From the IMG/VR virus record IMGVR_UViG_2698536449_000001: 17,779 bases of DNA; one strand, 5' to 3'. Below, one piece after another: positions 1-17,779 of this stretch. The stretch's first letter is position 1. Each line of letters opens with the position of its first letter. Source of the stretch: a virus. Its lineage: Duplodnaviria > Heunggongvirae > Uroviricota > Caudoviricetes. The notes under the pieces were generated by a model. That model searched no databases and was not told the origin of the DNA. It saw only the letters and a list, made by a program, of their open reading frames with translations. The position numbers and the translations under genes were made by a program.

Positions 1-439
1 AGCCACCGTTACGCTGTATCTGAACCAGCAGGCGAACTTCAGACGGATTCCTGTCTCCCTTTGAGGTGGTTTCCACCAGTGCCTGTACACCGAAGGTAAA
101 ACGCAGTCGGTCAATGTTTGCCGACGTGATGGTCCGGGTGATCGGCGTGTCATATTTCACTTCCGTACCCAGCACCGTCTCGGAGCCGGAGGATTCAAAT
201 CCCTCCGGCGGTGACTGCTCCTGCTCACCTGCCCGGAACACCACCGTGACGCCGGAGATGTTGGTATTCCCCTCACTGTCCAGCACCGGCGTACTGTTCA
301 GCAGCACGCTTTTTAATCCATCCACCGGACCTTCAACCGGCCCTTCGCTGATGGCATCGATCACACTCAGCAGCTGCGTGGACTTCAGGTTGTCCTTCGC
401 TTCGCGCGGGGTATGCCCCTTACTGCTGCCTTTACCCAT
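1..439 (-). CDS. J: Central tail fibre / host-specificity protein J, 5' portion only (about 146 codons; gene runs off the window start)
   Basis: Minus-strand frame is open from the ATG at 439-437 to the window edge and translates as MGKGSSKGHTPREAKDNLKSTQLLSVIDAISEGPVEGPVDGLKS..., the lambda gpJ N-terminus as I recall it. Absent from the ORF track only because there is no stop in the window. Sits downstream of I, as in lambda. Confidence 0.9.
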   Translation of the reverse strand, partial: MGKGSSKGHTPREAKDNLKSTQLLSVIDAISEGPVEGPVDGLKSVLLNSTPVLDSEGNTNISGVTVVFRAGEQEQSPPEGFESSGSETVLGTEVKYDTPITRTITSANIDRLRFTFGVQALVETTSKGDRNPSEVRLLVQIQRNGG

Positions 440-499
440 TCGTCATGCTCCATAAACGATAAAACCGCCCGGAGGCGATTTCACATAAAACATTTTGCA

Positions 500-1171
500 T
501 CAGCGACCAATCACCACAACCTGACCACCGTCCCCTTCGTCTGCCGTGCTGATCTCCTGAGATACCACACGTGACCCCACGCGCATTTCACCATACAGAA
601 CAGGCATAACATTGCCCTGGGCAACCATGTTATCCAGTGAGGAGAAATAGGTGTTCTGCTTACCGTTATCCGTTGTCTGTGTGCGGGGAGTTCTGGCTTT
701 CGGTGCCAGCATCTGAGCCACACCGCCGAGCACCATACTGGCACCGAGAGAAAACAGAATGCCGGTCATACCACCGGCACCAATGGCAGCCCCCCATGCT
801 GCAAGGGTGGCTCCGGCGGTAAAGAATGATCCGGCAATGGCGGCTGCTCCCAGGACAATCTGGAATACACCACCTGACTTGGCCCCGGCGACTCTGGGAA
901 CAATATGAATCACAGCGCCGTCAGGCAGAGCCTCATGTAACTGTGCCGTTAATCCGGACGTGCTAACATCCTGCCCGGCAATACGCACCTGATACCAGCC
1001 GTCGCTCAGCTTCTGACGAAACGCAGGGAGCTGTGTGGCCATCGCCCGGATGGCTTCGGCACCCGTTTTCACACGAAGGTCGATGCGGCGGCCAAATCGT
1101 TGCAAATCCCCGTAAAGGCAGATGCGTGCCATGCCCGGTGACGCCAGAGGGAGTGTGTGCGTCGCTGCCAT
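500..1171 (-). CDS. I: Tail tip assembly protein I
   Basis: 223-aa ORF (MAATHTLPLASPGMARICLYGDLQRFGRRIDLRVK...) with the length and sequence of lambda gpI from memory. Its start overlaps the 3' end of K by 103 nt in another frame, as in lambda. Confidence 0.92.
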   Translation of the reverse strand: MAATHTLPLASPGMARICLYGDLQRFGRRIDLRVKTGAEAIRAMATQLPAFRQKLSDGWYQVRIAGQDVSTSGLTAQLHEALPDGAVIHIVPRVAGAKSGGVFQIVLGAAAIAGSFFTAGATLAAWGAAIGAGGMTGILFSLGASMVLGGVAQMLAPKARTPRTQTTDNGKQNTYFSSLDNMVAQGNVMPVLYGEMRVGSRVVSQEISTADEGDGGQVVVIGR

Positions 1172-1617
1172 TTGTCGGTATACCTCTCTCGTTTGCTCAG
1201 TTGTTCAGGAATATGGTGCAGCAGCCCGCCGTCACCGCAGTAAATGGCGGCATGATTCGGCACCGATGAACCAAAACAGCACAGCAGCACATCGCCCGGC
1301 TGCGCCGCTGACAACGGCACCTGATACAGCCCTGTGGCCTCCAGATTATCCAGATAGAGATTCTGACCGTGACGCCACCAGTCATCCTCACGATGAAAAT
1401 CCGGCATCTCAATCCCCGCCAGATGGTAAGCATCCCGGAACAGCGTGTAACAGTCCGTCACCCCGTGCTCAAAGCGCCGCCCGGTAAGATGTGGCACACA
1501 GCGGAACTTGTGAATCGCCCCCCGGCAGACCAGCCACCACGGCAAATCACTCTGCACCTGCAGCCGCCGGTCGGCCTCACTCAGCCAGGGCAGACCACCG
1601 GGGTGGCTGTGGACCAG
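1069..1617 (-). CDS. K: Tail tip assembly protein K, 3' segment (codons ~66-247: JAMM motif onward plus NlpC/P60-like region), cut at the ambiguous base at 1618
   Basis: In-frame translation LVHSHPGGLPWLSEAD...TDCYTLFRDAYH...AAASTFV* ending at the stop at 1069-1071. The HxHx7Sx2D JAMM motif is visible. In the ORF track this segment is fused across the n at 1618 to I codons 1-26 from the duplicated block. Confidence 0.8.
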   Translation of the reverse strand: MVHSHPGGLPWLSEADRRLQVQSDLPWWLVCRGAIHKFRCVPHLTGRRFEHGVTDCYTLFRDAYHLAGIEMPDFHREDDWWRHGQNLYLDNLEATGLYQVPLSAAQPGDVLLCCFGSSVPNHAAIYCGDGGLLHHIPEQLSKRERYTDKWQRRTHSLWRHRAWHASAFTGICNDLAAASTFV

Positions 1618-1618
1618 N

Positions 1619-2302
1619 CCAAATCGTTGTAAATCCCCGTAAAGGCAGATGCGCGCCATGCCCGGTGACGCCAGAGGGAGTGTGTGCGTCGCTGCCATTT
1701 GTCGGTGTACCTCTCTCGTTTGCTCAGTTGTTCAGGAATATGGTGCAGCAGCCCGCCGTCACCGCAGTAAATGGCGGCATGATTCGGCACCGATGAACCA
1801 AAACAGCACAGCAGCACATCGCCCGGCTGTGCCTCTGTCAGTGCGACACGGTAAAAACCCGTCACCTCCATATTGTCAAGATAGAGATTCTGACCGTTAC
1901 GCCACCAGTCATCCCCGCGATGAAAATCCGGCATCTCAATCCCTGCCAGATGATAAGCATCCCGGAACAGCGTGTAACAGTCCGTCACCCCGTGCTCAAA
2001 GCGCCGCCCGGTGAGATGCGGCACACAGCGGAACTTGTGAATCGCCCCCCGGCAGACCAGCCACCACGGCAAATCACTCTGCACCTGCAGCCGCCGGTCG
2101 GCCTCACTCAGCCAGGGCAGACCACCGGGGTGGCTGTGGACCAGTGCCACAATCTCACCCTGCATCTCTGCCTGCAGCCAGTCTTCCGGCGACATACGGA
2201 AATACGCCTCCGGCTCACCGGAGATATTCACGCAGGGGAAATATCTTTCCCCCTCCGGCGTTCTTACCACGAAGCCGCACGACTCCGCTGGAGCACATCG
2301 CC
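1619..2302 (-). repeat. Divergent duplicate copy of an internal K/I segment (K codons ~13-239 plus the overlapping start of I), bounded by n at 1618 and the N-run at 2303-2334
   Basis: About 527 bp at 1090-1617 recurs at 1618-2144 with scattered substitutions, and about 165 bp at 2140-2302 recurs at 2345-2516. Translation gives RCAPAESCGFVVRTPEGERYFPCVNISGEPEAYFRMSPEDWLQAEMQGEIVALVHSHPGG...IYNDL. A second I start (MAATHTLPLASPGMARICLYGDLQRF) is present at 1698. Confidence 0.85.
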
Positions 2303-2334
2303 NNNNNNNNNNNNNNNNNNNNNNNNNNNNNNNN
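2303..2334. other. Assembly gap: run of 32 N (a further single n at 1618)
   Basis: Literal n characters in the sequence, both exactly at the junctions of the duplicated K segments. Confidence 0.99.
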
Positions 2335-2547
2335 GGGATGACTGTGGACCAGCGCCACAATCTCACCCTGCATTTGTGCCCGCAGCCAGTCCTCCGGAGC
2401 CATCCGGAACCGTTCCTCCGGCTCACCGGAGATATTCTCGCTGGGAAGATACCTGTCTCCCTCCGGCGTTCTTACCACGAAGCCACACGACTCCGCTGGC
2501 GCACATCGCCGGGCGTGCGCCAGAATCGCTGATTCTGTCTCTGTCAT
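2335..2547 (-). CDS. K: Tail tip assembly protein K, 5' segment (codons 1-71, ending at the LVHSHP JAMM motif where the N-run begins)
   Basis: ATG at 2547-2545 lies 5 nt downstream of the L stop. Translation is MTETESAILAHARRCAPAESCGFVVRTPEGDRYLPSENISGEPEERFRMAPEDWLRAQMQGEIVALVHSHP, then Ns. Confidence 0.8.
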
Positions 2548-2552
2548 GGGAT

Positions 2553-3251
2553 TTACTGCGAAAGTTTGTTAATGGAAAGGAAGCCGCCAAAGTTGCCGAC
2601 GTTATTGCGAAACTTACAGCCACTCAGGCATTTGCTGCATTTATCCTTCGTGATGTCGGACGTTGGCTGGTCATATTCATCCGCGACCGCCGGACCGTGA
2701 TAACCGCACTCATCGCCGCGATAGGTCCAGGTGCAGGTGTTGGCCAGCATGATACGTCCCGGAAAAACAGCGCCATCTGTTTCCGTCGGCGTGGACAGTA
2801 CAAAAGAGGCACTCACCGCGCTCAGTTCGCTGCACTGCTCAATGCGCCAGCGGCTGATCACCTCCTGCTCCGGATCGGCGTCACTGTTTCCGTTGACGAA
2901 GTTCACCGCATCCAGAAAACGGGCGTAAACCTTACGCCGGACCACCGTTCCGCCGACCAGACTCTGTAGATCTTCCGCCATCCCGGTGACCATACCGTAC
3001 AGGTTAGAAACCATCAGCGTGGGGCGCGTACTGGTGCCTTTGCCATTCAGTTCAAAACCACTCCCCTGAATGGGATACGGCTGATACTGTCGCCCCTGCC
3101 AGGTGACCGGCTCACCTTTTTCGTTCTGCTCATTACAGAAAAAATAACGTTCTCCACCGACCTCTGTCAGATCGATTTCCCAGAGCACCACGCTGGCCGA
3201 CTGCTCCGCACGGGTGCATTCATTCAGTGTTTCCTGCCGGATATCCTGCAT
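2553..3251 (-). CDS. L: Tail tip protein L
   Basis: 232-aa ORF (MQDIRQETLNECTRAEQSASVVLWEIDLTEVGGERYFFCNEQ...) matching lambda gpL from memory, with C-terminal cysteines (CSKCLSGC). Its start shares one nucleotide with the M stop, as in lambda. Confidence 0.93.
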   Translation of the reverse strand: MQDIRQETLNECTRAEQSASVVLWEIDLTEVGGERYFFCNEQNEKGEPVTWQGRQYQPYPIQGSGFELNGKGTSTRPTLMVSNLYGMVTGMAEDLQSLVGGTVVRRKVYARFLDAVNFVNGNSDADPEQEVISRWRIEQCSELSAVSASFVLSTPTETDGAVFPGRIMLANTCTWTYRGDECGYHGPAVADEYDQPTSDITKDKCSKCLSGCKFRNNVGNFGGFLSINKLSQ

Positions 3252-3580
3252 CAGTTCACCACCTGTTCAAACTCTGCGCTGAACTCAACACGCAGCATAC
3301 TGACCCGCGACGACCATTTTGCGCAGGTCACCTTTATCTGCCGCCACTCATAAGGCGGCGTCCACAGAAAGGCTTTCCAGCCCCCGTGCTCTTCCAGAAA
3401 CGACTCCAGTACCATGGCCTCCTCACGGGGGACAGAAAGCGTCACGCTGTACGTTTTCAGGTTGGCATTCAGCCCGGCAGGCGCTCGCTGGGAATAGCCA
3501 TCACCAAAGCGCACCTTTCTTACAGAAGGGGCCGAAGCCACATCCATACCGGGTTTCACTTTCCAGCGGAAGGTTTTCAT
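3251..3580 (-). CDS. M: Tail tip assembly protein M
   Basis: 109-aa ORF (MKTFRWKVKPGMDVASAPSVRKVRFGDGYSQRAPAGLNANL...) matching lambda gpM. Its start overlaps the H stop by 4 nt. Confidence 0.93.
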   Translation of the reverse strand: MKTFRWKVKPGMDVASAPSVRKVRFGDGYSQRAPAGLNANLKTYSVTLSVPREEAMVLESFLEEHGGWKAFLWTPPYEWRQIKVTCAKWSSRVSMLRVEFSAEFEQVVN

Positions 3581-6138
3581 CGTCCACCTCCGGAGAACAG
3601 GCCACCATCACGCATCTGTGTCTGAATTTCATCACGGGCACCCTTGCGGGCCATGTCATACACGGCCTTCATCATCTGTGGACCTGGCAGACCATTCGTA
3701 CCGTCGTTCTGAATCACCACGTGATTGTTCTGATTAAAATTAATGCCTTCAGCCCGCCGCATCTGCGCCGGACTTCCGGCACCGCCCACATAACCACCTT
3801 CCGCATAGCCGCGCATCAGCCGGTAGAGATTCCCCACGCCAATCCGGCTGGTTGCCTCCTTCGTGAAGACAAATTCACCACGGTGAACAATCCCCGCTGG
3901 CTCATATTTGCCGCCGGTTCCCGTAAATCCCCCGGTTGCAAAATGGAATTTCACCGCAGCGGCCTGAATGGCTGTACCACCTGACGCGGATGCGCCGCCA
4001 CCAACAGCCCCGCCAATGGCGCTGCCGATACTCCCGACAATCCCCACCATTGCCTGCTTAAGCAGAATTTCTGTCATCATGGACAGCACGGAGCGGGTGA
4101 AGCTGCGCCAGTTCTGTTCACTGCCGGTCAGCATCGCCGCCATATTCTGTGCAATACCATCAAAGGTCTGCGTGGCTGCACTTTTAACCTGTGACATACT
4201 GTCCGTGGCGCTCTCTTCCCACTCACTCCAGCCGGACTTCAGGCCTGCCATCCAGCTCCCGCGAAGCTGGTCTTCAGCCGCCCAGGTCTTTTTCTGCTCT
4301 GACATGACGTTATTCAGCGCCAGAGGATTATCGCCATACTGTTCCTTCAGGCGCTGTTCCGTGGCTTCCCGCGCTGCCTGCCGGTCAGTCAGCCCCCGGT
4401 TTTTCGCATCAATGGCTGCCCGTTTTGCCCGTTGCTGCTGTGCGAATTTATCCGCCTGCTGCGCCAGCGCATTCAGGTGCTCCTGATACGTAACCTTGTC
4501 ACCAAGTGCAGCCAGCTGGCGTTTGTACTCCAGCGTCTCGTCTTTATGCGCCAGCAGGGATTTCTCCTGTGCGGACAGCTGGCGACGTTGTGCCGCCTCC
4601 TCCAGTACCGCGAACTGACTTTCTGCCTTCCACAAATCCCGGCGCTGCTGGCTGATTTTCTCATTCGCTCCGGCATGCTTCTCCAGCGTCCGGAGTTCTG
4701 CCTGAAGCGTCAGCAGGGCCGCATGAGCACTGTCTTCCTGACGATCGCCCGCATACACCTTCACGCCGGACTGTTTCGGCTTTTTCAGCGTCGCTTCATA
4801 ATCCTTTTTCGCCGCCGCCATCAGCGTGTTGTAATCTGCCTGCAGGATTTTTCCGTCTTTCAGTGCCTTGTTCAGTTCTTCCTGACGGGCGGTATATTTC
4901 TCCAGCGGCGTCTGCAGCCGTTCGTAAGCCTTCTGCGCCTCTTCGGTATATTTCAGCCGTGACGCTTCGGTATCGCTCTGCTGCTGCGCATTTTTGTCCT
5001 GTTGACGCTGTTGATCTACCCTCTTTTGGGCTGCATCCCGCTCCAGGCGTTTTTTTTCACGATCATCCCAGTAACGCGCCCGTGCTTCATCGTTAACGAA
5101 ATAATCATCCTTGCGCAGATTCCAGATGTCGTCTGCTTTCTTAAACGCAGCCTCTGCCTTAATCAGCATCTCCTGCGCGGTATCAGGACGACCAATATCC
5201 AGCACCGCATCCCACATGGATTTGAATGCACGTGCAGTCCTGTCTGCCCAGGTCTCCAGCGTGCCCATGTTCTCTTTCAGGCGGCGGGTCTGGTCATCAA
5301 ACCCTTTCGTTGCGGCCTCGTTCGCCGCCTGCAATGCCCCGGCTTCATCGCCGGAACGCTGCAACTGAGCAACATACGCAATCTGCTCCGCCGTCACGTT
5401 ATGGAACTGGCGTGCCATCGCCGTCAGCCCCGACGTCGGGTCTGTGGTCAGCTTCCCGAAGGCTTCAGCGACCTTGTCCACCTCCACGCCGGATGCATAG
5501 GAGAAACGCGCCACACTCTGGCTGATGGACGCAATCTGAGCCTCACCGCTTACCCCCGCCTTAACCAGTGCGCTGAGTGACTCGCTGGTCTGGTTAAACG
5601 TCAGCCCTGCCGCCTGCCCGGCTCTGGACAGGACCAGCATACGATCTGCCGTCAGTCCCGCCTGATTACCGGAAAGGACCAGCGTTTTGTTGAAATCGGA
5701 CAGGGTTGAGTTGCCCTGATACCAGGCATACGCCAGCGCACCGGTCGCCACCGCCAGCGAGGTGGCCCCCACCATCGGCAGGGTGATCGCGCCGGCAAGC
5801 CCCCTGAACATGGGGATCATCCCGCCGAAGGAGTCCTTAACCTGACCACCCTGTTGCAGCAGGATCAGCCAGGGATTCTGCCCCCCTGCAAGCTGCGTGG
5901 CCACGTCGGTGAACTGTGCAGGCAGCATACGCATGGCGGCTTTATACTGCCCGACGGAAATCCCCGCTTTCTGTGCAGCCAGCGCCTGTCGGCTCAGCGA
6001 CTGTTCAACGACTGCCGCTGTTTTTTTCGCATCACTTTCCGTACCGGAAAAATGACGCCTGACTCTGGCCATCTGCTCGTCAAATCTGGCCGCATCCAGA
6101 CTCAAATCAACGACCAGATCGCCTACCGGTTCAGCCAT
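3577..6138 (-). CDS. H: Tail tape measure protein H
   Basis: 853-aa ORF, the same length as lambda gpH, with an N-terminus (MAEPVGDLVVDLSLDAARFDEQMARVRRHF...) I recognise. Long coiled-coil-like central region and a Gly-rich C-terminal part. Overlaps the T ORF by 8 nt. Confidence 0.95.
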   Translation of the reverse strand: MAEPVGDLVVDLSLDAARFDEQMARVRRHFSGTESDAKKTAAVVEQSLSRQALAAQKAGISVGQYKAAMRMLPAQFTDVATQLAGGQNPWLILLQQGGQVKDSFGGMIPMFRGLAGAITLPMVGATSLAVATGALAYAWYQGNSTLSDFNKTLVLSGNQAGLTADRMLVLSRAGQAAGLTFNQTSESLSALVKAGVSGEAQIASISQSVARFSYASGVEVDKVAEAFGKLTTDPTSGLTAMARQFHNVTAEQIAYVAQLQRSGDEAGALQAANEAATKGFDDQTRRLKENMGTLETWADRTARAFKSMWDAVLDIGRPDTAQEMLIKAEAAFKKADDIWNLRKDDYFVNDEARARYWDDREKKRLERDAAQKRVDQQRQQDKNAQQQSDTEASRLKYTEEAQKAYERLQTPLEKYTARQEELNKALKDGKILQADYNTLMAAAKKDYEATLKKPKQSGVKVYAGDRQEDSAHAALLTLQAELRTLEKHAGANEKISQQRRDLWKAESQFAVLEEAAQRRQLSAQEKSLLAHKDETLEYKRQLAALGDKVTYQEHLNALAQQADKFAQQQRAKRAAIDAKNRGLTDRQAAREATEQRLKEQYGDNPLALNNVMSEQKKTWAAEDQLRGSWMAGLKSGWSEWEESATDSMSQVKSAATQTFDGIAQNMAAMLTGSEQNWRSFTRSVLSMMTEILLKQAMVGIVGSIGSAIGGAVGGGASASGGTAIQAAAVKFHFATGGFTGTGGKYEPAGIVHRGEFVFTKEATSRIGVGNLYRLMRGYAEGGYVGGAGSPAQMRRAEGINFNQNNHVVIQNDGTNGLPGPQMMKAVYDMARKGARDEIQTQMRDGGLFSGGGR

Positions 6139-6565
6139 ACCGGACTCCTCCTGCGATCCCTTCTGATACTGTCATCAGCATTACGTCATCCTCCGTCATG
6201 TCCGCCACATCCGGGGAAGCGGGGATAACTTCATTCCCGTCCGGGCCAAAGCGGACACCTCCGGCAAGCCCTGCCGCTTTCTGCATCAGCACATCATCTT
6301 CAGGCTCTTCGTCAGCCTCGCGCCGGTTCAGCAGACTGAAATCCAGCGGATGCATCTCCGGATCGCTGAAAAACAGGCTGAGCACGGTGTACGTCAGCCC
6401 GGAAAAGTGCATATCCAGCAGAACATCATGAAAATAATGGGTACTGTAAAAGCGGTGCCAGTCGGCATACTCCGTGGATGACATCCCGGCAAGCATGGCG
6501 CGCCAGTCGGGTCGCCCCATCTCACGCGCCAGTTTCAGGGCAAAACTCAGCTCACCGTCGAACAC
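6131..6565 (-). CDS. T: T segment of tail assembly chaperone gpGT; expected to be translated only as a G-T fusion after a -1 frameshift, not from its own start
   Basis: Open frame in the -1 frame relative to G, beginning inside the slippery site. The ORF-track start is a GTG rendered as M. Position and product match lambda T. Confidence 0.85.
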   Translation of the reverse strand: MFDGELSFALKLAREMGRPDWRAMLAGMSSTEYADWHRFYSTHYFHDVLLDMHFSGLTYTVLSLFFSDPEMHPLDFSLLNRREADEEPEDDVLMQKAAGLAGGVRFGPDGNEVIPASPDVADMTEDDVMLMTVSEGIAGGVRYG

Positions 6566-6969
6566 TTTCCCGCAGAAACAGGCTCTGCAGGCCCGGCGTC
6601 CTCTGCCTGTTCAGGAGCATCATTCACCACAAACTCATACATACCGGACAGCCGGTACACCACGTTTTCAGCATGAGAAATTGCCTCTGTGGGCCAGGTG
6701 GTAAGCACTTCCTGCTCAATCTGTTTAACGGCTTCATTCATGGACGGCATCTGCGTCTTCTTCGGATGGTTATGCCACAGGGACATCGCAACCACAAAAG
6801 CGCCGGTTCTGATGGCGTCTTCCACAGTAAACTTCCGGTTGCTGTCTGACTCCGCCTGTTCTGCCTGCCGTTTCATCAGGTCGAGATGCTCAATACGCTG
6901 CAGGGCTGACAGTTCAGAAAGCGTGACGGTCACACCGTTATGTTCAAATGATTCGGTTTTCAGGAACAT
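6547..6969 (-). CDS. G: Tail assembly chaperone G
   Basis: 140-aa ORF (MFLKTESFEHNGVTVTLSELSALQRIEHLDLMKRQ...SAGKCSTVS) matching lambda gpG, with the frameshift site near its 3' end. Confidence 0.92.
   Translation of the reverse strand: MFLKTESFEHNGVTVTLSELSALQRIEHLDLMKRQAEQAESDSNRKFTVEDAIRTGAFVVAMSLWHNHPKKTQMPSMNEAVKQIEQEVLTTWPTEAISHAENVVYRLSGMYEFVVNDAPEQAEDAGPAEPVSAGKCSTVS
6565..6571 (-). other. Programmed -1 ribosomal frameshift slippery heptamer G GGA AAG (G to GT)
   Basis: Plus strand 6565-6571 is ctttccc, so the minus strand reads GGGAAAG. In the G frame it falls as xxG GGA AAG, 6 codons before the G stop at 6547-6549. The -1 frame then continues open through T. Confidence 0.85.
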
Positions 6970-6984
6970 CGCTGACTCTCCGGA

Positions 6985-7725
6985 TTAACTGGCGGTGACG
7001 TTGATTTCTGCAACCGCAGCAAACTCACCATTACCAGATACGACCGGAATGTTGACCTTGCCTGCAGCAACACCTTTCACGGTGATGGTCATACCACTGA
7101 CCGACACGGTGGCTTTTGTTTTATCCGCAGACACCGCACGGAAGCTCTTGTCGGTTGCGCCATCCGGCTGGAATGCCACGGTCAGCGTGGTGCTCTGCCC
7201 TTTCACTACGGAAGCACTGGCGGGTGTCACCGTCATGCCGGTCGTCGCCGTCACCGTGCTGCGATCTTCTGCCATCGACGGACGTCCCACATTGGTGACC
7301 TTCACCGTGCGGGTAATCACCTCCTTCGCCGTCACCGCCTTACCGATACTGCTGACCCAGCCACGGAACACATCGACCGTGCCGTTCGGGAAGCGGATTT
7401 TATAGGCACGGGTATCACCTTCATTAAACCACGCCAGCAGCGCCTGCTGCCCCTGCTCTCCGGGCATCCACGCCAGCGTGAAGCTGGTATCTCCGGCAGA
7501 TTTCTGCCCCTGCCCGGTCGCAGTCCAGTCTGCATCTTCATCATCGAGATAGCTGTCGTCATAGGACTCAGCGGTCAGTTCGCCGGGCGTCAGGTCTTTA
7601 ACTTTTGCCAGACGCGACCAGTCAACGTCTGAAAGCGGGTTCGCATAAGGGTCACCGCTCCCCTTATAAACCCACAGGGTGGTCCCGGCACCTTTCACCG
7701 GCATTGTAGGATTTGGTACAGGCAT
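6985..7725 (-). CDS. V: Major tail tube protein V (C-terminal Ig-like domain)
   Basis: The ORF-track entry 6985..7755 starts 10 codons too early. The lambda gpV N-terminus [22 protein letters not shown] begins at the ATG at 7725, preceded by a GAGGA Shine-Dalgarno and lying 8 nt after the U stop. 246 aa. Confidence 0.92.
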
Positions 7726-7732
7726 AGCGTCC

Positions 7733-8128
7733 TCACATTTCATAGATAATGACATAAGTCAGATCGGCTGAACTCCACAGGCCCGCATCATCGTCGCGCC
7801 GGTAGTCATAGCCGCTGGCCACCATACTGGTGATCAAATCTGACAGTGCCGGGATATCGCTCATCACCGGATAAATCCGGGACTCCATCCACGAATCCAG
7901 CTCTGAATCCGGCACCTGAGCAGGCAGGAAAACTTCAATATGCAGCTCCGCCTGCCAGGTATCGCTGTCCAGCTCTTCGCCCGTGTATTCAGCGCCGGTG
8001 AGATAAACGGCAATTGCCGGAAAATCTTCCTCATCAAAAACAGCGGGGCGACCATCAAAAAGCGTCGCCCCGGTGTCATGCTTCTCCAGTGCATCCAGTA
8101 CGGCTGCACGGAGTTCAGTATGTTTCAT
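7733..8128 (-). CDS. U: Tail terminator protein U
   Basis: 131-aa ORF ([36 protein letters not shown]...) matching lambda gpU. Its start overlaps the Z stop by 4 nt. Confidence 0.93.
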
Positions 8129-8703
8129 CGCTTTATTACCATTCTCAGTTGATGCTGCAGCGCATAGCCCAGCTCTTTCGGAAGACGTTCACGCCGTATC
8201 CGTTCAATATTCTGTTTAAACGCCGTGGTCAGCGGCACCGCCATCGGGATTTTCACCACATCAATGGGGTAACGGTTTTTCCCGGCCACACGCTGCATAA
8301 CATGCCACCGGCCGTTTTTCAGTTGCTGAATAAACGCGCCGGGAATACGACGGTTACCCACCACAAGCACGCTGCCGCCACCTTTCAGGGATGAACGCTG
8401 CCCCTTTTTATGACGCCTGCGGCGGGACAGGACAACCCGCGCATTACCCAGCTTGATTACGGGCAAATCCCCCCGGTTAACTTTGATTCTGGCCTGCGGA
8501 TTTTTGACCGTGGCCCTTTTCAGCCTGGCCCTTTCCTTTACCAGTTTCCGGCGTACCTTTGTCTCACGGGCAACCTGTGACGCAGACTGCGATATCGCGG
8601 ATGAAGCAACGCGGTTAATGGCCATTGCGGCGGCACCGGGCACCGCCGTTTTGCTGATACGGCTGAGGTTTTCAACGGCCTGCTCAAGACCTTTTATGGC
8701 CAT
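8125..8703 (-). CDS. Z: Tail completion protein Z
   Basis: 192-aa ORF (MAIKGLEQAVENLSRISKTAVPGAAAMAINRVASS...) matching lambda gpZ. Confidence 0.92.
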   Translation of the reverse strand: MAIKGLEQAVENLSRISKTAVPGAAAMAINRVASSAISQSASQVARETKVRRKLVKERARLKRATVKNPQARIKVNRGDLPVIKLGNARVVLSRRRRHKKGQRSSLKGGGSVLVVGNRRIPGAFIQQLKNGRWHVMQRVAGKNRYPIDVVKIPMAVPLTTAFKQNIERIRRERLPKELGYALQHQLRMVIKR

Positions 8704-8714
8704 ACATCCCCCTT

Positions 8715-9068
8715 TCAGCGGCGACGGTTAACGGCAGGCGGTACGCCCCGTCCAAGCCAGAGATGACAACTTCCGCCATCATCCGGCGAAACCCGATCTA
8801 CCCAGAAATTTTCCTCACCGATGGTCAGCGTGTCTCCACGCCGCAGCTGCCGCACCTCATCAGTCCGGACAAACAGGGACGGGCTGGAGCCTTCAACGCG
8901 CACGCCCTGTCCGGCATAGCTGATATTTTCAGGGTCATCAAAAACACCACGTATCACCGCACCTGACTGCTCACCGGATGTCATGGTGGCTGACGTTCCC
9001 ATGTACCCGCGTATCGTTTCATCGGCGCGGGCAATGGCAGCATCGAACAGGTTATCGAAATCAGCCAC
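8715..9068 (-). CDS. FII: Head-tail joining protein FII
   Basis: 117-aa ORF (MADFDNLFDAAIARADETIRGYMGTSATMTSGEQ...) matching lambda gpFII. Confidence 0.92.
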   Translation of the reverse strand: MADFDNLFDAAIARADETIRGYMGTSATMTSGEQSGAVIRGVFDDPENISYAGQGVRVEGSSPSLFVRTDEVRQLRRGDTLTIGEENFWVDRVSPDDGGSCHLWLGRGVPPAVNRRR

Positions 9069-9079
9069 AGCGCCTCCCG

Positions 9080-9478
9080 TTATTGCATTCTGGCCAGGCC
9101 GCGCTCTGTCATTTCGGCTGCCACACCGGCAGAGACACGAAACGCCGTTCCCGGCAGCACAAATGCCACAGGTTTATCCCGCGTGGCGTGAAGTGCATCA
9201 GTATGCAGCGTCACCAGTGCCACGACCGTGACCAGTTCAGCCGTATCCTGAATCACGGTATCCGGCTGCGCTGATACCACCTCATTTTCATGCCCGGTCA
9301 GCACATTTTCCCGGCTGAGAGGGGTGTCCTGACCGGCAGTTTCATCCGTGTCATCAAGCTCTTCTTCCAGCTCTGCCACACGAAGCGCCAGTTCTTCTTT
9401 CGTTCCCGTCAAACTGACATCGCGGTTCAATTGCTCACCCAGCTCCTGAAGACGGGCAATCAGTTCATCTTTCGTCAT
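9080..9478 (-). CDS. FI: DNA packaging / head completion protein FI
   Basis: The ORF-track entry 9080..9517 is N-terminally extended. The lambda gpFI N-terminus MTKDELIARLQELGEQLNRDVSLTGTKEELALRVAEL begins at the ATG at 9478, preceded by GGAGGAG. 132 aa. Confidence 0.9.
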   Translation of the reverse strand: MTKDELIARLQELGEQLNRDVSLTGTKEELALRVAELEEELDDTDETAGQDTPLSRENVLTGHENEVVSAQPDTVIQDTAELVTVVALVTLHTDALHATRDKPVAFVLPGTAFRVSAGVAAEMTERGLARMQ

Positions 9479-9519
9479 GAACTCCTCCACAGAGAGAAAA
9501 TGGCCCCGAAGGGCCATGA

Positions 9520-10545
9520 TTACGCCAGTTGAACGGACACGAACTCATCAGGATCAGCCAGCAGCATCAGCGGTGCTGACTGAATCATGGTGAACTCACG
9601 CGCCGGATCGCCGGTGGTCACCCAGTTTTTCGGGTAACGGGCAGAAGCGTTAATGCCTTCGCGCTGTGCGTCCGCATCCTGAATGCAGCCATAGGTGCGC
9701 AGACCGCGAGCCTGAGTGTTCCCCAGCACCATCGTGTTGTCCGGCAGGAAGTTCTTTTTGACGCCGTTTTCCACGTACTGTCCGGAATACACGACGATGG
9801 CCACATCGCCATACATTCCCTTATAGGACACCGCTTTGCCCAGGTCTTTTACCGCTGTCTCCAGCTCGGAATGAGAGCCGCGACGGGTATCCAGCTTCTC
9901 CTTGACGGCTTTGAAGGAACGGAACAGCGCCCAGCCTTTCGGGTCAAACACGATGATATTCACCACACCGCTGGCGTTCAGCGCGTAGGCTTCGATATCG
10001 TCGGTCGGGTCATACGTGGACTTGTCACGCTTGCTCCACTCCGTGACGCCGGACTGTGTGATGTTGTTCGCCGCACTGCGGCCCATATCCACCTCAACCG
10101 GATCGAAGGCTTCACCGGTCATGGTGTATTTGCCCTTGAGCACGGCAGAAACTGCCTGCATCTCTTCGACCTGAGCAATGGCCAGCTCTTCGTCACGCAT
10201 GTTCTGCATGATGATGCGACGGCGGCGGTAAGCCGGGTCCGCCAGATTCTGCGGATCTTCATCCGGCAGGCGACGCAGGGTCATCTGCGGATTCACCTCA
10301 TGCTTGGGTTTGACATATCCCGGCGTAAATTCAGAGGTGGAGCCGCCACGGGAACGGATAACCTCACCGGAAACAATCGGCGAAACGTACAGCGCCATGT
10401 TTACCAGTCCCGGAATTTGTGAGAGATAGACTTTCTCCGTAGTGAAGGGATAGCTCTCACGGAAAAAGAGACGCAGAAACAGCGGATCAAACTTAAATTT
10501 CTGCTCATTTGCCGCCAGCAGCTGGGCGGTTGTGTACATCGACAT
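9520..10545 (-). CDS. E: Major capsid protein E
   Basis: The ORF-track entry 9520..10572 is extended. The lambda gpE N-terminus MSMYTTAQLLAANEQKFKFDPLFLRLFFRESYPF begins at the ATG at 10545. 341 aa. Confidence 0.95.
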   Translation of the reverse strand: MSMYTTAQLLAANEQKFKFDPLFLRLFFRESYPFTTEKVYLSQIPGLVNMALYVSPIVSGEVIRSRGGSTSEFTPGYVKPKHEVNPQMTLRRLPDEDPQNLADPAYRRRRIIMQNMRDEELAIAQVEEMQAVSAVLKGKYTMTGEAFDPVEVDMGRSAANNITQSGVTEWSKRDKSTYDPTDDIEAYALNASGVVNIIVFDPKGWALFRSFKAVKEKLDTRRGSHSELETAVKDLGKAVSYKGMYGDVAIVVYSGQYVENGVKKNFLPDNTMVLGNTQARGLRTYGCIQDADAQREGINASARYPKNWVTTGDPAREFTMIQSAPLMLLADPDEFVSVQLA

Positions 10546-10600
10546 AAAAAAATCCCGTAAAAAAAGCCACACAGGCGGCCTTTAGTGATGAAGGGTAAAG

Positions 10601-10933
10601 TTAAACGATGCTGATTGCCGTTCCGGCAAACACGGTCCGTTTTTTCGTCTCGTCGCTGGCAGCCTCCGGCCAGAGCACATCCTCATAACGGAACGTGCCG
10701 GACTTGTAGAACGTCAGTGTGGTGCTGGTCTGGTCAGCAGCAACCGCAAGAATGCCAACGGCAGCACCGTCGGTGGTGCCATCCCACGCAACCAGCTTAC
10801 GGGTGGAGGTGTCCAGCATCAGCGGGGTCATTGCAGGCGCTTTCGCACTCAATCCGCCGGGCGCGGTTGCGGTATGAGCCGGGTCACTATTGCCCAGCGG
10901 CTGGTAATGGGTAAAGGTTTCTTTGCTCGTCAT
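10601..10933 (-). CDS. D: Head decoration protein D
   Basis: [40 protein letters not shown]... from the ATG at 10933 (AAGGG Shine-Dalgarno at suitable spacing; the ORF-track start at 10939 sits too close to it). 110 aa, matching lambda gpD. Confidence 0.93.
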
Positions 10934-10942
10934 AAACATCCC

Positions 10943-11548
10943 TTACACTGGTGTGTTCAGCAAATCGTTAACGGCATCAGATGCCGGGTTACCTGCAGCC
11001 AGCGGTGCCGGTGCCCCCTGCATCAGACGATCCAGCGCAGTGTCACTGCGCGTCTGTGCACTCTGTGGTGCTGCGGCCAGAATACGGCGGGCCGTTTCCA
11101 CGGTCATACCGGGGGTTTCGGCCAGCACGCGTGCCTGTTCTTCGCGTCCGTGAGCCTCCTCACAGTTGAGGATCCCCATAATGCGACTGTTTTCTGCCGC
11201 AACCGCTGCGGTGATCTGCGCGTTCACGTCCGGCTGCGCCGCGCTGGCGTTCTCGCCCTCCGTCGCTTGCACCACGCCAGTAACGTCAGCCTGCGAAGCA
11301 GTGGCTGAAACAGTTGTTGATTGAGTCTCTTTGGTCATTCGCCCTCCTGAGAGACGGGATTTACGTGCATCCAGTGCATCACGCATGACGGTGATCGCAT
11401 CGGTACTGTTAACAAGTTCATCAGCCAGTCCGGCATCAATGGCCTCCTGACCGCTGTACACTGCAGCCTCGGTATCCAGCACAGCCTGCACGGACAGGCC
11501 GGTATATGCCGACACCTTCTGTGCAAACATCCGGCGGGTTGCATCCAT
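10943..11548 (-). CDS. Nu3: Scaffolding protein Nu3, nested in-frame in the 3' part of C
   Basis: An in-frame internal ATG at 11548-11546 (MDATRRMFAQKVSAYTG...) lies 238 codons after the C start, where I recall the lambda Nu3 start. It shares the C stop. No strong Shine-Dalgarno is visible. Confidence 0.6.
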   Translation of the reverse strand: MDATRRMFAQKVSAYTGLSVQAVLDTEAAVYSGQEAIDAGLADELVNSTDAITVMRDALDARKSRLSGGRMTKETQSTTVSATASQADVTGVVQATEGENASAAQPDVNAQITAAVAAENSRIMGILNCEEAHGREEQARVLAETPGMTVETARRILAAAPQSAQTRSDTALDRLMQGAPAPLAAGNPASDAVNDLLNTPV

Positions 11549-12242
11549 CCGGGACTGCAATGTTTCCCGGACATCATCCGGTAGATGGCTGTAGGGGTTG
11601 CCATCCACCTTATGGCTGCCGCTGTAAATCAGCGTGATTTCCACGCCCTGTTTCTCCAGTGCAGCGCCGTAATTACTGTGAGCCATCATGACGCCGATGG
11701 AGCCTGTCCGGGCGGTCTGCGTGACCAGACGCCGGGAGGCGGCACTGGCAAGCAGCTGACCTGCGCTGCAGTTCATGTCATTGGCCAGCGCCCATACCGG
11801 CTTTATGTCACGCACACGGGCGATGATGTCAGCGCAGTCAAATGCTCCCGCCACCATTCCGCCCGGTGTGTCCATATCGAGCAGAATGCCGTCCACCATC
11901 GGGTCGCTGGCAGCCTGTTGCAGACGGGCGATAATGCCGTTGTAACCGGTCATCCCCGAGTACGGCTGCAGCGCCCGCGTCCGGCTGACCAGCGTGCCGG
12001 ACACCGGCAGCACGGCGATGCCGTTCATTACCTGATAACTGCGGGCCTGTCGTGGTCCGTCATCATCACCGGATAACGCCAGCGCCGCGGGTGCCTCTCC
12101 GGCAGTCAGGCTGTCGCCGGATACTGCATCCGTCAGGCAGCTGATCCCAAGCTGGCCTGCAAGCGCACAAAAGAAAACCCGCGCATAGGCGGGTTCAAGC
12201 ATCAGCGGCTCATTAAAAGCCATGCTGGCAATATGCGGGAGA

Positions 12243-12262
<20 letters not shown>
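10943..12262 (-). CDS. C: Head maturation protease / scaffold C (GTG start)
   Basis: The ORF-track entry extends upstream through the B overlap. The lambda gpC N-terminus (M)TAELRNLPHIASMAFNEPLMLEPAYARVFF begins at the GTG at 12262-12260, preceded by GGAGGAG. 440 codons, overlapping the B 3' end by 20 nt as in lambda. Confidence 0.9.
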
Positions 12263-15943
<3,681 letters not shown>

Positions 15944-15969
<26 letters not shown>

Positions 15970-16489
15970 TCAGCAACCCCGGTATCAGTTCATCCAGCGC
16001 GGCTGCTTTGTTCATGGCTTTGATGATATCCCGTTTCAGGAAATCAACATGTCGGTTTTCCAGTTCCGGAAAACGCCGCTGCACCGACAGGGGGATCCCG
16101 TCGAGAATACTGGCAATTTCACCTGCGATCCGCGACAGCACGAAAGTACAGAATGCGGTTTCCACCACTTCAGCGGAGTCTCTGGCATTTTTCAGCTCCT
16201 GTGCGTCGGCCTGCGCACGCGTAAGTCGATGGCGTTCGTACTCAATAGTCCCTGGCTGGAGATCTGTCTCGCTGGCCTGCCGCAGTTCTTCAACTTCCCG
16301 GCGCAGCTTTTCGTTCTCAATTTCAGCATCCCTTTCGGCATACCATCTTATAACGGCGGCAGAGTCATAAAGCACCTCATTACCCTTGCCACCGCCTCGC
16401 AGAACGGGCATTCCCTGTTCCTGCCAGTTCTGAATGGTACGGATACTCGCACCGAAAATGTCAGCCAGCTGCTTTTTGTTGACTTCCAT
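15944..16489 (-). CDS. Nu1: Terminase small subunit Nu1
   Basis: 181-aa ORF (MEVNKKQLADIFGASIRTIQNWQEQGMPVLRGGGKGNEVLYDSAAV...) matching lambda gpNu1, with an N-terminal helix-turn-helix. Lies immediately downstream of cos on the minus strand. Confidence 0.95.
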
Positions 16490-16666: not shown

Positions 16667-16678
16667 CGCCTTCCGCCC
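16667..16678 (-). other. cosN cohesive-end 12-mer (minus strand GGGCGGAAGGCG), a variant of lambda GGGCGGCGACCT
   Basis: Flanks are identical to lambda as I remember it: CGACAGGTTACG on the right-end side and CGCGGGTTTTCGCTATTTATG on the Nu1 side. Only the second hexamer of the 12-mer differs. Confidence 0.75.
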
Positions 16679-16702
16679 CGTAACCTGTCGGATCGCCGGA
16701 AA

Positions 16703-16709
16703 GGACCCG
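16703..16709 (-). other. Candidate cosQ (minus strand CGGGTCC), about 25-30 bp from cosN
   Basis: Minus strand reads TTTGCGGGTCCTTTCCGG here. Placement is from my memory of lambda cosQ; exact boundaries are unverified. Confidence 0.4.
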
Positions 16710-16714
16710 CAAAA

Positions 16715-16729
16715 TGATAATAATTATCA
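16715..16729. promoter_or_regulatory. Perfect 7-1-7 palindrome TGATAATAATTATCA; Fur-box-like (function unproven)
   Basis: Directly visible. Matches the Fur box core TGATAATnATTATCA and about 16/19 of the 19-bp consensus GATAATGATAATCATTATC. Lies between cosQ and the divergently oriented right-end genes. Confidence 0.35.
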
Positions 16730-16877
16730 TCTACATGTCACAACGTGCATCTACGCCATCAAACCACGTCAAATAATCAATTATGACGCAGGTATCGTAT
16801 TAATTGATCTGCATCAACTTAACGTAAAAACAACTTCAGACAATACAAATCAGCGACACTGAATACAGGGCAACCTC

Positions 16878-17111
16878 ATGTCAACGAAGAACAGAACCCG
16901 CAGAACAACAACCCGCAACATCCGCTTTCCTAACCAAATGATTGAACAAATTAACATCGCTCTTGTTCAAAAAGGGTCCGGGAATTTCTCAGCCTGGGTC
17001 ATTGAAGCCTGCCGCCGGAGACTGTGCTCAGAAAAAAGAGTTTCGCCTGAAGCAAACAAAGAAAAGAGTGACATTACTGAATTGCTCAGAAAACAGGTTA
17101 GACCAGATTGA
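16878..17111 (+). CDS. Small basic ribbon-helix-helix-like protein; resembles YlcI/YnfO (DUF3950) proteins of E. coli lambdoid prophages
   Basis: 77-aa ORF with an Arg/Thr-rich N-terminus (MSTKNRTRRTTTRNIRFP), then a short beta-strand-like RNIRFP and two predicted helices (NQMIEQINIALVQKG, NFSAWVIEACRRRL). Weak AGGG Shine-Dalgarno 7 nt upstream. Family assignment is from memory. Confidence 0.6.
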   Translation: MSTKNRTRRTTTRNIRFPNQMIEQINIALVQKGSGNFSAWVIEACRRRLCSEKRVSPEANKEKSDITELLRKQVRPD

Positions 17112-17168
17112 AGCAATTTAGATAATCGTGCAGACTACGCCCCCTCATATCACATGGAAGGTACTACA

Positions 17169-17579
17169 ATGGCTCAGGTTGCCATTTTTAAACAAATATT
17201 CGATAAAGTGCGAAATAATTTAAACTATCACTGGTTTTATTCTGAACTAAAACGTCACAATGTCTCACATTACATTTACTATTTAGCCACAGAGAATATT
17301 CATCTTGTTCTTGAAAACGATAATACGGTTTTAATAAAAGGACAGGGTAAGGTTGTAAATGTAAGATTTTCAAAAAATAAATGCCTTATAGAAGCCACCT
17401 TAAAAGGATTCAAATCAGGAGAGTTATCATTTTACGAATACAGGAAAAATCTTGCTACAGCAGGGGTTTTCAGATGGATTACAAATATCCACGAAAACAA
17501 AAGGTATTACTATACCTTTGATAATTCATTACTCTTTACTGAGAACATACAGAACACTACACAAATATTTCCGCACTAA
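17169..17579 (+). CDS. Hypothetical AT-rich accessory protein (136 aa from the second ATG); possibly YbcV/YdfO-like (DUF1398), unverified
   Basis: ORF-track entry 17154..17579. The ATG at 17169 has a GGAAGG Shine-Dalgarno 7 nt upstream, so I prefer it. Roughly one-third G+C by eye, against clearly GC-richer structural genes. Same strand as, and 42-57 bp downstream of, the RHH-like gene. Confidence 0.5.
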
Positions 17580-17624
17580 ATCATAACGTCCGGTTTCTTC
17601 CGTGCCAGAACCGGACTCGCTGGC

Positions 17625-17779
17625 ATGATGAAATATGTGTACCCGGTAACCCCGGTGTGCATCGTTTTTGATTATTCCCGCACACTCGCGCAGAAGGAGT
17701 TCCCCGTCGGGCTACGGTCTCTGTTAATACGGGAATACGGCGACGATTGGATTTGCCCCTATATTTCCAGACATCTGTT
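17625..17779 (+). CDS. Possible 5' end of a further gene running off the window (MMKYVYPVTPVCIVFDYSRTLAQKEFPVGLRSLLIREYGDDWICPYISRHL...)
   Basis: Frame open from the ATG at 17625 to the window end, but no clear Shine-Dalgarno. A minus-strand frame is also open across this stretch, so the coding strand is unresolved. Confidence 0.2.
   Translation, partial: MMKYVYPVTPVCIVFDYSRTLAQKEFPVGLRSLLIREYGDDWICPYISRHL

Follow-up and report, generated by a model that had tools for sequence, protein, structure and literature searches.

We analysed two adjacent plus-strand genes, here called ORF1 and ORF2 (ORF, open reading frame), at positions 16878-17579 of a 17,779-nucleotide stretch of viral DNA (Caudoviricetes; IMG/VR record IMGVR_UViG_2698536449_000001; "the window" below means this whole stretch). 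Judged by its sequence, the region is shown to be the usual right end, beside cos, of a lambda-like phage or prophage, and both genes are already catalogued, as ynfO/ylcI and ydfO/ybcV next to cos in lambda and most E. coli prophages. A first-pass annotation had described them as one AT-rich accessory cassette acquired separately from the late genes. The explanation that we favour, at a probability of roughly 0.6, combines a backbone gene, the ribbon-helix-helix (RHH)-like ynfO, with an independent AT-rich moron that carries a DUF1398 gene at the lambdoid right end.

The late region of the window is lambda-like and lies on the minus strand; beyond it come cos and then, just past cos, ORF1 and ORF2, whose orientation, read from the sequence, is opposite to that of Nu1 and terminase A. 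The earlier description of two non-structural plus-strand genes antisense to the late operon is accurate in this respect. The features that carry the argument are the following.

16878-17111, plus strand: ORF1, ynfO/ylcI, 77 amino acids, YlcI/YnfO family, Pfam DUF3950
17169-17579, plus strand: ORF2, ydfO/ybcV type, lambda 'lambdap78', DUF1398, 136 amino acids (the alternative ATG at 17154 gives 141 amino acids)
17031-17590, plus strand: AT-rich variable block, GC 0.336, comprising the YnfO tail, the ORF2 control region and ORF2
17591-17747: conserved downstream element, about 160 nt, GC 0.548
15944-16489, minus strand: Nu1
14044-15969, minus strand: terminase A

The GC content of ORF2 is 0.314, against 0.570 +/- 0.026 (minimum 0.506) in same-sized segments of positions 1-16489. 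The core of ORF1 (16878-17030) is at 0.484 and the DNA after ORF2 is back at 0.548, so the AT-rich island consists only of ORF2 and the 3' tail of ORF1. The sharp drop in composition reported on the first pass is thus real for 17031-17590 but does not extend to the ORF1 core.

When the window is aligned with E. coli A65EC and Stx2a_WGPS8, two conserved flanks appear: the ynfO core (through codon 49) and an element that starts at ~17590. Between them lie DUF1398 in the window, ybcW plus DUF1398 in lambda and an AT-rich non-coding stretch in Stx2a_WGPS8; in the A65EC prophage the block is absent, and ylcI is followed directly by the downstream element and iss. The block 17031-17590 is therefore present or absent between the same conserved flanks, and it is distinct in composition: its GC content is 0.336, and that of ORF2 is 0.314, while the flanks have 0.484 and 0.548 and the late genes 0.57. 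By these comparisons of sequence it behaves as a moron, being absent or replaced in other phages. Family alignments place the conserved RHH-like core in codons 1-49 of ORF1 (16878-17024); across the YnfO family the first ~50 residues are nearly invariant and the C-terminal tail is hypervariable, because the coding sequence of the tail lies in the left edge of the block.

Either gene can also be found on its own, an observation that speaks against a toxin-antitoxin pair. In a tblastn search against phages, 155 records had YnfO and only 43 had DUF1398. Stx phages carry a DUF3950 gene at the same lysis/packaging junction, beside a packaging module of another type (HNH-TerS-TerL) and without DUF1398, and DUF1398 stands alone, with no YnfO nearby, at 21 loci of other Enterobacteriaceae. 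Homologues of DUF1398 in Kluyvera, Pseudocitrobacter and S. diarizonae (28-39% identical) have no YnfO, terminase or conserved neighbour beside them. A GTDB scan with one genome per species detected DUF1398 only in Enterobacteriaceae, apart from one contig of a 'Nanosynbacter' metagenome-assembled genome. Loci with exactly this ORF2 allele are linked to ynfO in all cases (77 of 77), a linkage that reflects shared ancestry and no dependence. The IMG/VR scans (with ORF2 and with a YnfO alignment) gave near-identical alleles only and serve for linkage counts rather than diversity, which was drawn from the GTDB scan and the tblastn search. By these sequence criteria the pair is not one acquired unit, the ORF1 core being conserved backbone and the ORF2 block separate cargo. 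Separate acquisition, as first proposed, fits the behaviour of ORF2, which is AT-rich and present or absent between flanks, but not for the pair as a single cassette.

The Candidatus Nanosynbacter contig (L084, 4030 bp) carries an ORF2 that is 100% identical, together with YnfO and Nu1, and is almost certainly a binning contaminant. A record named 'Campylobacter phage CJLB-4' likewise holds lambda DNA.

At the DNA level, phages PhiR49_1, Kati and ev099 share 98-99% identity with the 1.28-kb region, and lambda shares 87%. Of 5426 complete E. coli genomes, 4429 contain a match (median 2 copies), and in 2649 of these 80% or more of the query is covered. The E. coli matches are annotated as YlcI/YnfO family and DUF1398 domain-containing proteins: ynfO-ydfO in Qin and ylcI-ybcW-ybcV in DLP12. 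The K-12 Qin pair (whose YdfO is PDB 2HH8) is another allele, of the L088 type, 76% identical in ORF2; compared with Qin, the window prophage retains intact terminase and head genes, and IS2 breaks its locus downstream. Lambda and DLP12 have the same cos-ynfO spacer and ynfO core (96% DNA identity), the same downstream element and the same orientation to the late operon, and their DUF1398 protein is 76% identical to ORF2. The order in lambda is a 64-amino-acid ylcI ORF, ~560 bp with ybcW/lambdap79 on the opposite strand, the DUF1398 gene, the bor promoter and bor. The ~560-bp stretch is an insertion relative to the window, hence the 64-amino-acid YlcI with another tail. Lambda then runs on into bor, whereas the window runs on into a truncated 54-amino-acid ORF and IS2.

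Both genes are under purifying selection and are therefore real genes and no chance ORFs. Between diverged alleles, the ratio of nonsynonymous to synonymous substitution rates (dN/dS) is 0.07-0.10 for the ORF1 core (versus Stx2a_WGPS8 and JLK-2012) and 0.21-0.30 for ORF2 (versus the Qin and lambda types).

The two protein families

ORF1 is a small basic protein (pI 10.9). Membership of the YlcI/YnfO family was judged by a profile score over the curated cut-off with the conserved NFS motif region included. ORF1 belongs to this family, with 72.8 bits against Pfam DUF3950 (PF13132, cut-off 25; residues 21-50 covered) and 35.2 bits against NCBIfam NF041551 (YlcI/YnfO, cut-off 30). It also matches phrog_949, and it is 96% identical to proteins named YlcI/YnfO. 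ORF2 belongs to DUF1398 (PF07166), with 147 bits (cut-off 22) over profile positions 1-119 of 119. The first-pass annotation had named DUF3950 and DUF1398 for profile searches, and these are the right families.

That ORF1 is RHH-like, as had also been proposed, is plausible, though weakly supported by sequence and model. Its sequence runs in the order basic arm, beta-strand, helix, G-x-x-x-S turn, helix, and its NIRFP...G-x-x-x-S (GSGNFS) parallels the NLRWP...G-x-x-x-S (GRSVNS) of Arc. The AlphaFold2 (AF2) monomer model has an extended N-terminus followed by core helices 19-32 and 34-54, with a mean predicted local distance difference test (pLDDT) score of 68.6 and values of 82-85 in the core. 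With hhalign, ORF1 aligns in register to a small hand-made RHH profile at E=0.005, with a probability of only 7%; the score exceeds that of 30 of 30 column-shuffled controls. Alignments to single RHH sequences are weaker (best E about 0.03). Foldseek found no match for the ORF1 model, and phmmer and profile hmmsearch of ORF1 against PDB sequences gave chance matches only. In comparison with the Arc/Mnt/CopG repressors and the RHH antitoxins, ORF1 thus gives no significant sequence or fold score, and its C-terminal tail, by contrast with that of the antitoxins, has no link to a cognate toxin.

For ORF2 we prefer the start at ATG 17169, since GGAAGG lies 7 nt upstream and the resulting length equals that of K-12 YdfO/YbcV (136 amino acids) and the one given on the first pass. 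Against YdfO of E. coli, whose structure is solved (PDB 2HH8), ORF2 gives a match at E=1.4e-69; it is 75% identical to YdfO and has the same fold, an internally duplicated (alpha2-beta3) x 2 arrangement that is described as unique. The protein is predicted to be soluble, with no hydrophobic segment and no signal peptide. The DUF1398 family is small, with 189 representatives at E<=0.001 among 1.84 billion, and its diverged homologues at 25-40% identity are still full length. The literature searched held no functional study of DUF1398 or DUF3950.

An oxidative-stress phenotype for YdfO of Qin, the only one that the literature searched cites for this protein, was considered and rejected as a name mix-up with yfdO of CPS-53. 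The statement that YdfO overexpression raises oxidative-stress resistance is found in PMC4077768, which cites Wang et al. 2010 (PMC3105296); the proteins named there are YfdK, YfdO and YfdS of CPS-53, and ydfO does not appear in it.

Regulation and proposed role

Two overlapping candidate control sites lie upstream of ORF2.

17099-17126, plus strand: candidate sigma-70-like promoter TAGACC-16-GATAAT, from a consensus scan (9 of 12 matches)
17096-17108, plus strand: PdhR-type box GGTTAGACCAGAT, inside AACAGGTTAGACCAGAT at 17092-17108

The PdhR-type box has one match in the window against 0.04 expected by chance. In alignments, both the box and the promoter hexamers TAGACC and GATAAT are conserved in lambda-type DNA and in ev099. 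Published expression reports concern the K-12 homologues and not the element in the window. Genomic SELEX (gSELEX) located near-identical PdhR boxes in ynfO>ydfO and between ybcV and ybcW, and deletion of pdhR lowered ybcV and ybcW mRNA about 10-fold (PMC7660256). Overexpression of T4 MotB, an H-NS-associated DNA-binding protein, raised ybcV and ybcW more than 1000-fold (PMC7827196), and ydfO is strongly induced by ionic liquid in a growth-phase dependent manner (PMC4077768). By analogy, these K-12 results fit an independently transcribed, host-controlled accessory gene.

Several observations weigh against a backbone gene joined by an independently expressed moron. The promoter scan as a whole gave 4 sites against 2.9 expected in shuffles, which is no enrichment and makes it weak alone. 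Upstream of ORF1 the Shine-Dalgarno sequence is weak, and the consensus scan detected no plus-strand sigma-70-like site in the spacer ahead of it (16680-16877); no intrinsic terminator was found after ORF2. The literature searched ties no phenotype to ydfO, ybcV, ynfO or ylcI. Finally, hitch-hiking beside cos could be part of the reason why the genes are ubiquitous.

In the explanation that we favour, ynfO/ylcI is a backbone gene that many lambdoid phages keep at the junction of the lysis and packaging modules, in every case antisense to the late transcript. The AT-rich block begins just past ynfO codon 49, so it also supplies the variable tail of YnfO, and it carries its own promoter-like site, overlapped by the PdhR-type box. 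From its sequence and the structure model, YnfO may be a dimeric RHH DNA binder; a conserved operator, which most likely lies in the spacer upstream of its own gene, would be recognised by its basic N-terminal arm and its beta-strand, and autoregulation would result. The DUF1398 gene would be expressed independently of the late operon and under host control; the papers on the K-12 homologues point to H-NS-type silencing of the AT-rich DNA and to activation by PdhR. Its product is probably a small soluble cytoplasmic protein that would act by partner binding rather than catalysis. It may also act alone, because the homologues in Kluyvera, Pseudocitrobacter and S. diarizonae are solitary, with variable neighbours. 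We infer that it would give the host a benefit of the lysogenic-conversion type, like the neighbouring bor/iss.

The ORF2 block resembles the morons bor/iss and lom in several respects. It is likewise richer in AT than the backbone, is found in some elements and missing from others between flanks that are conserved, and runs antisense to lytic transcription with a promoter-like site, and it lies directly upstream of the bor/iss slot. Unlike bor/iss and lom, it has no terminator that we could find, and its product is predicted to be cytoplasmic and no outer-membrane protein.

Competing explanations

We consider it unlikely that the genes have no current function and merely persist in the conserved junction DNA by cos, exchanged by recombination. 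The spacer and ORF1 core are 96% identical to lambda-type DNA while the flanks are at about 87%, which fits recent exchange at a module boundary, and the downstream 54-amino-acid ORF is clearly not conserved as coding. Against this idea, the dN/dS values of both genes indicate purifying selection at the protein level, and the distant DUF1398 homologues remain full length.

A prophage-borne role in anti-phage defence or superinfection exclusion, raised as speculation on the first pass, appears quite unlikely. Variable cargo (bor/iss, KilA-N and TonB-like genes) is indeed present in the DNA from cos to the lysis genes, both genes point away from every lytic transcript and persist in cryptic prophages, and there are weak sub-threshold matches to HEPN_AbiA_CTD (E=0.014) and Csx23 (E=0.025). 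The scores of these two matches are far under the cut-offs, however. In PADLOC-DB 2.0, ORF1 has no match and ORF2 only that to Csx23, at 12.6 bits, so neither protein matches a known defence system and nothing in this search favours a defence role. DUF1398 also lacks nuclease, NTPase or membrane features and has a unique fold, no defence phenotype was found in the literature searched, and the ORF2 allele is nearly invariant over many prophages, unlike fast-turnover defence islands.

Lambda DNA enters the cell right end first, so ynfO and then ydfO, reading inward from that end, would be the first genes to arrive. By analogy with the leading regions of conjugative plasmids, one could regard them as an early-entry pair, expressed from promoters of their own before the start of either the lytic or the lysogenic programme and countering a host defence or priming the host, with the 3' end of ynfO after codon 49 as a dedicated hotspot for cargo exchange. 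We find this distinctly improbable.

Very improbable, too, is a type II toxin-antitoxin system, and an obligate regulator-effector module is also unlikely; toxin-antitoxin and regulator-effector modules had both been named on the first pass. As a toxin-antitoxin system, YnfO would serve as the RHH antitoxin and repress its own gene, with DUF1398 as a toxin neutralised by the YnfO C-terminal tail. Strict linkage is contradicted by the unequal phage counts and by the solitary DUF1398 loci given above, as well as by the occurrence of ylcI without DUF1398 in E. coli A65EC and Stx phages, and in lambda and DLP12 the 560-bp insertion with opposite-strand ybcW parts ylcI from the DUF1398 gene. The YnfO tail is wholly different between alleles while DUF1398 stays 76% identical. 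Nor are the two ORFs adjacent or overlapping in the manner of an operon, as a 57-nt gap with a promoter-like site separates them, and neither Pfam nor PADLOC gave a match to a toxin family.

Barely credible is a structural role for ORF2, which is suggested by labels: phrog_413 'head protein' matches at E=1e-89, the same label is used in RefSeq for lambda, HK629, ev099 and Kati, and GenBank lambda derivatives have 'putative envelope protein'. All head proteins come from the late operon, to which this gene runs antisense; phages and prophages that share the lambda-type terminase and head genes can lack it, as do Stx phages, and it has homologues in non-phage chromosomal contexts. The DUF1398 protein is not known to be among the virion proteins of lambda (E, D, B, C-derived, W, FII and the tail proteins). 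The envelope label is contradicted by the lack of a signal peptide or hydrophobic segment, and the 177-amino-acid 'envelope' form hangs on an unconserved GTG extension. Both labels are unsupported.

There are three problems with the annotation of lambda (seen at 1117-1650 of L002, which is HK629, of the lambda type, and at 47048-47452 and 48139-48303 of lambda J02459): the DUF1398 gene of lambda is annotated as a 177-amino-acid 'putative envelope protein' from the GTG, it is relabelled 'head protein' in RefSeq and PHROG 413, and the 64-amino-acid ylcI ORF adjoining cos is left unannotated in lambda J02459.

As a discovery the region has little value: its genes are catalogued, most E. coli genomes contain a match to them, and lambda itself carries them. 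The main yield is a clean-up: a backbone gene plus an AT-rich insert, an unlikely toxin-antitoxin reading, unsupported labels and the YdfO phenotype mix-up. A real phenotype would interest phage biologists, since these genes are among the few lambda-borne ORFs without assigned function; the window offers no easier test of their function than K-12 or lambda.

DNA flanking the two genes

The flanking DNA holds the following features; coordinates preceded by a locus name refer to that locus.

16667-16678: cosN 12-nt cohesive end, CGCCTTCCGCCC on the plus strand, which is GGGCGGAAGGCG in lambda orientation
16680-16877: cosN-ORF1 spacer, GC 0.40, the cosQ-side right end and presumed ynfO control region
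L001 ~915-1075, L002 ~1655-1815, L190 ~3905-4075, L192 ~2790-2945: copies of the downstream element
L001 1254-1775, 24 of the 80 IMG/VR loci L004-L083, L190 4445-4942, L191 4851-5348: downstream cargo slot
17748-17779: IS2 terminal inverted repeat TGGATTTGCCCCTATATTTCCAGACATCTGTT, the last 32 nt of the window, inserted into the downstream element

We placed cosN by alignment to the lambda-type HK629 and by the end of the ev099 record. It differs from the lambda sequence GGGCGGCGACCT at 6 of 12 positions, with the cos flanks otherwise conserved. Among the fetched loci this variant is the minority, being detected in 13 against 122 of the lambda type, and phage Kati (98% identical) has a lambda-type cosN.

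The 96% identity of the spacer and ORF1 core to lambda-type DNA extends over 344 nt. The spacer contains a near-perfect palindrome, GATAATAATTATC (16716-16731), ~40 nt from cosN and conserved in lambda, and an inverted repeat (16776-16788 / 16796-16808). The best promoter-like site of the region, GTGACA-16-TATCAT (16714-16743, 10 of 12), is on the minus strand, overlaps this palindrome and faces cos and Nu1.

The downstream element is common to lambda, ev099, Stx2a_WGPS8 and E. coli A65EC, with or without DUF1398, and in lambda it includes the bor promoter. It holds the first 41 codons of the 54-amino-acid ORF (from 17625) that is annotated in ev099. We rejected this ORF as a third cassette gene, as it is not kept in lambda or Stx2a_WGPS8 though the DNA is conserved; because the ORF is not preserved elsewhere, the conservation looks non-coding. 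Neither the region nor three related loci gave an Rfam match.

The truly variable cargo site is the slot 3' of ynfO and the DUF1398 gene, between the downstream element and Rz. This slot is occupied by KilA-N in ev099 and many IMG/VR contigs, by bor in lambda, by iss in E. coli A65EC and by a TonB-family gene in JLK-2012.

Homology to ev099, lambda and the Stx phages ends at 17747. Sequences that match 17748-17779 are annotated 'IS3-like element IS2 family transposase', and this copy of the phage, which carries IS2 just 3' of the DUF1398 gene, is probably a disrupted prophage.

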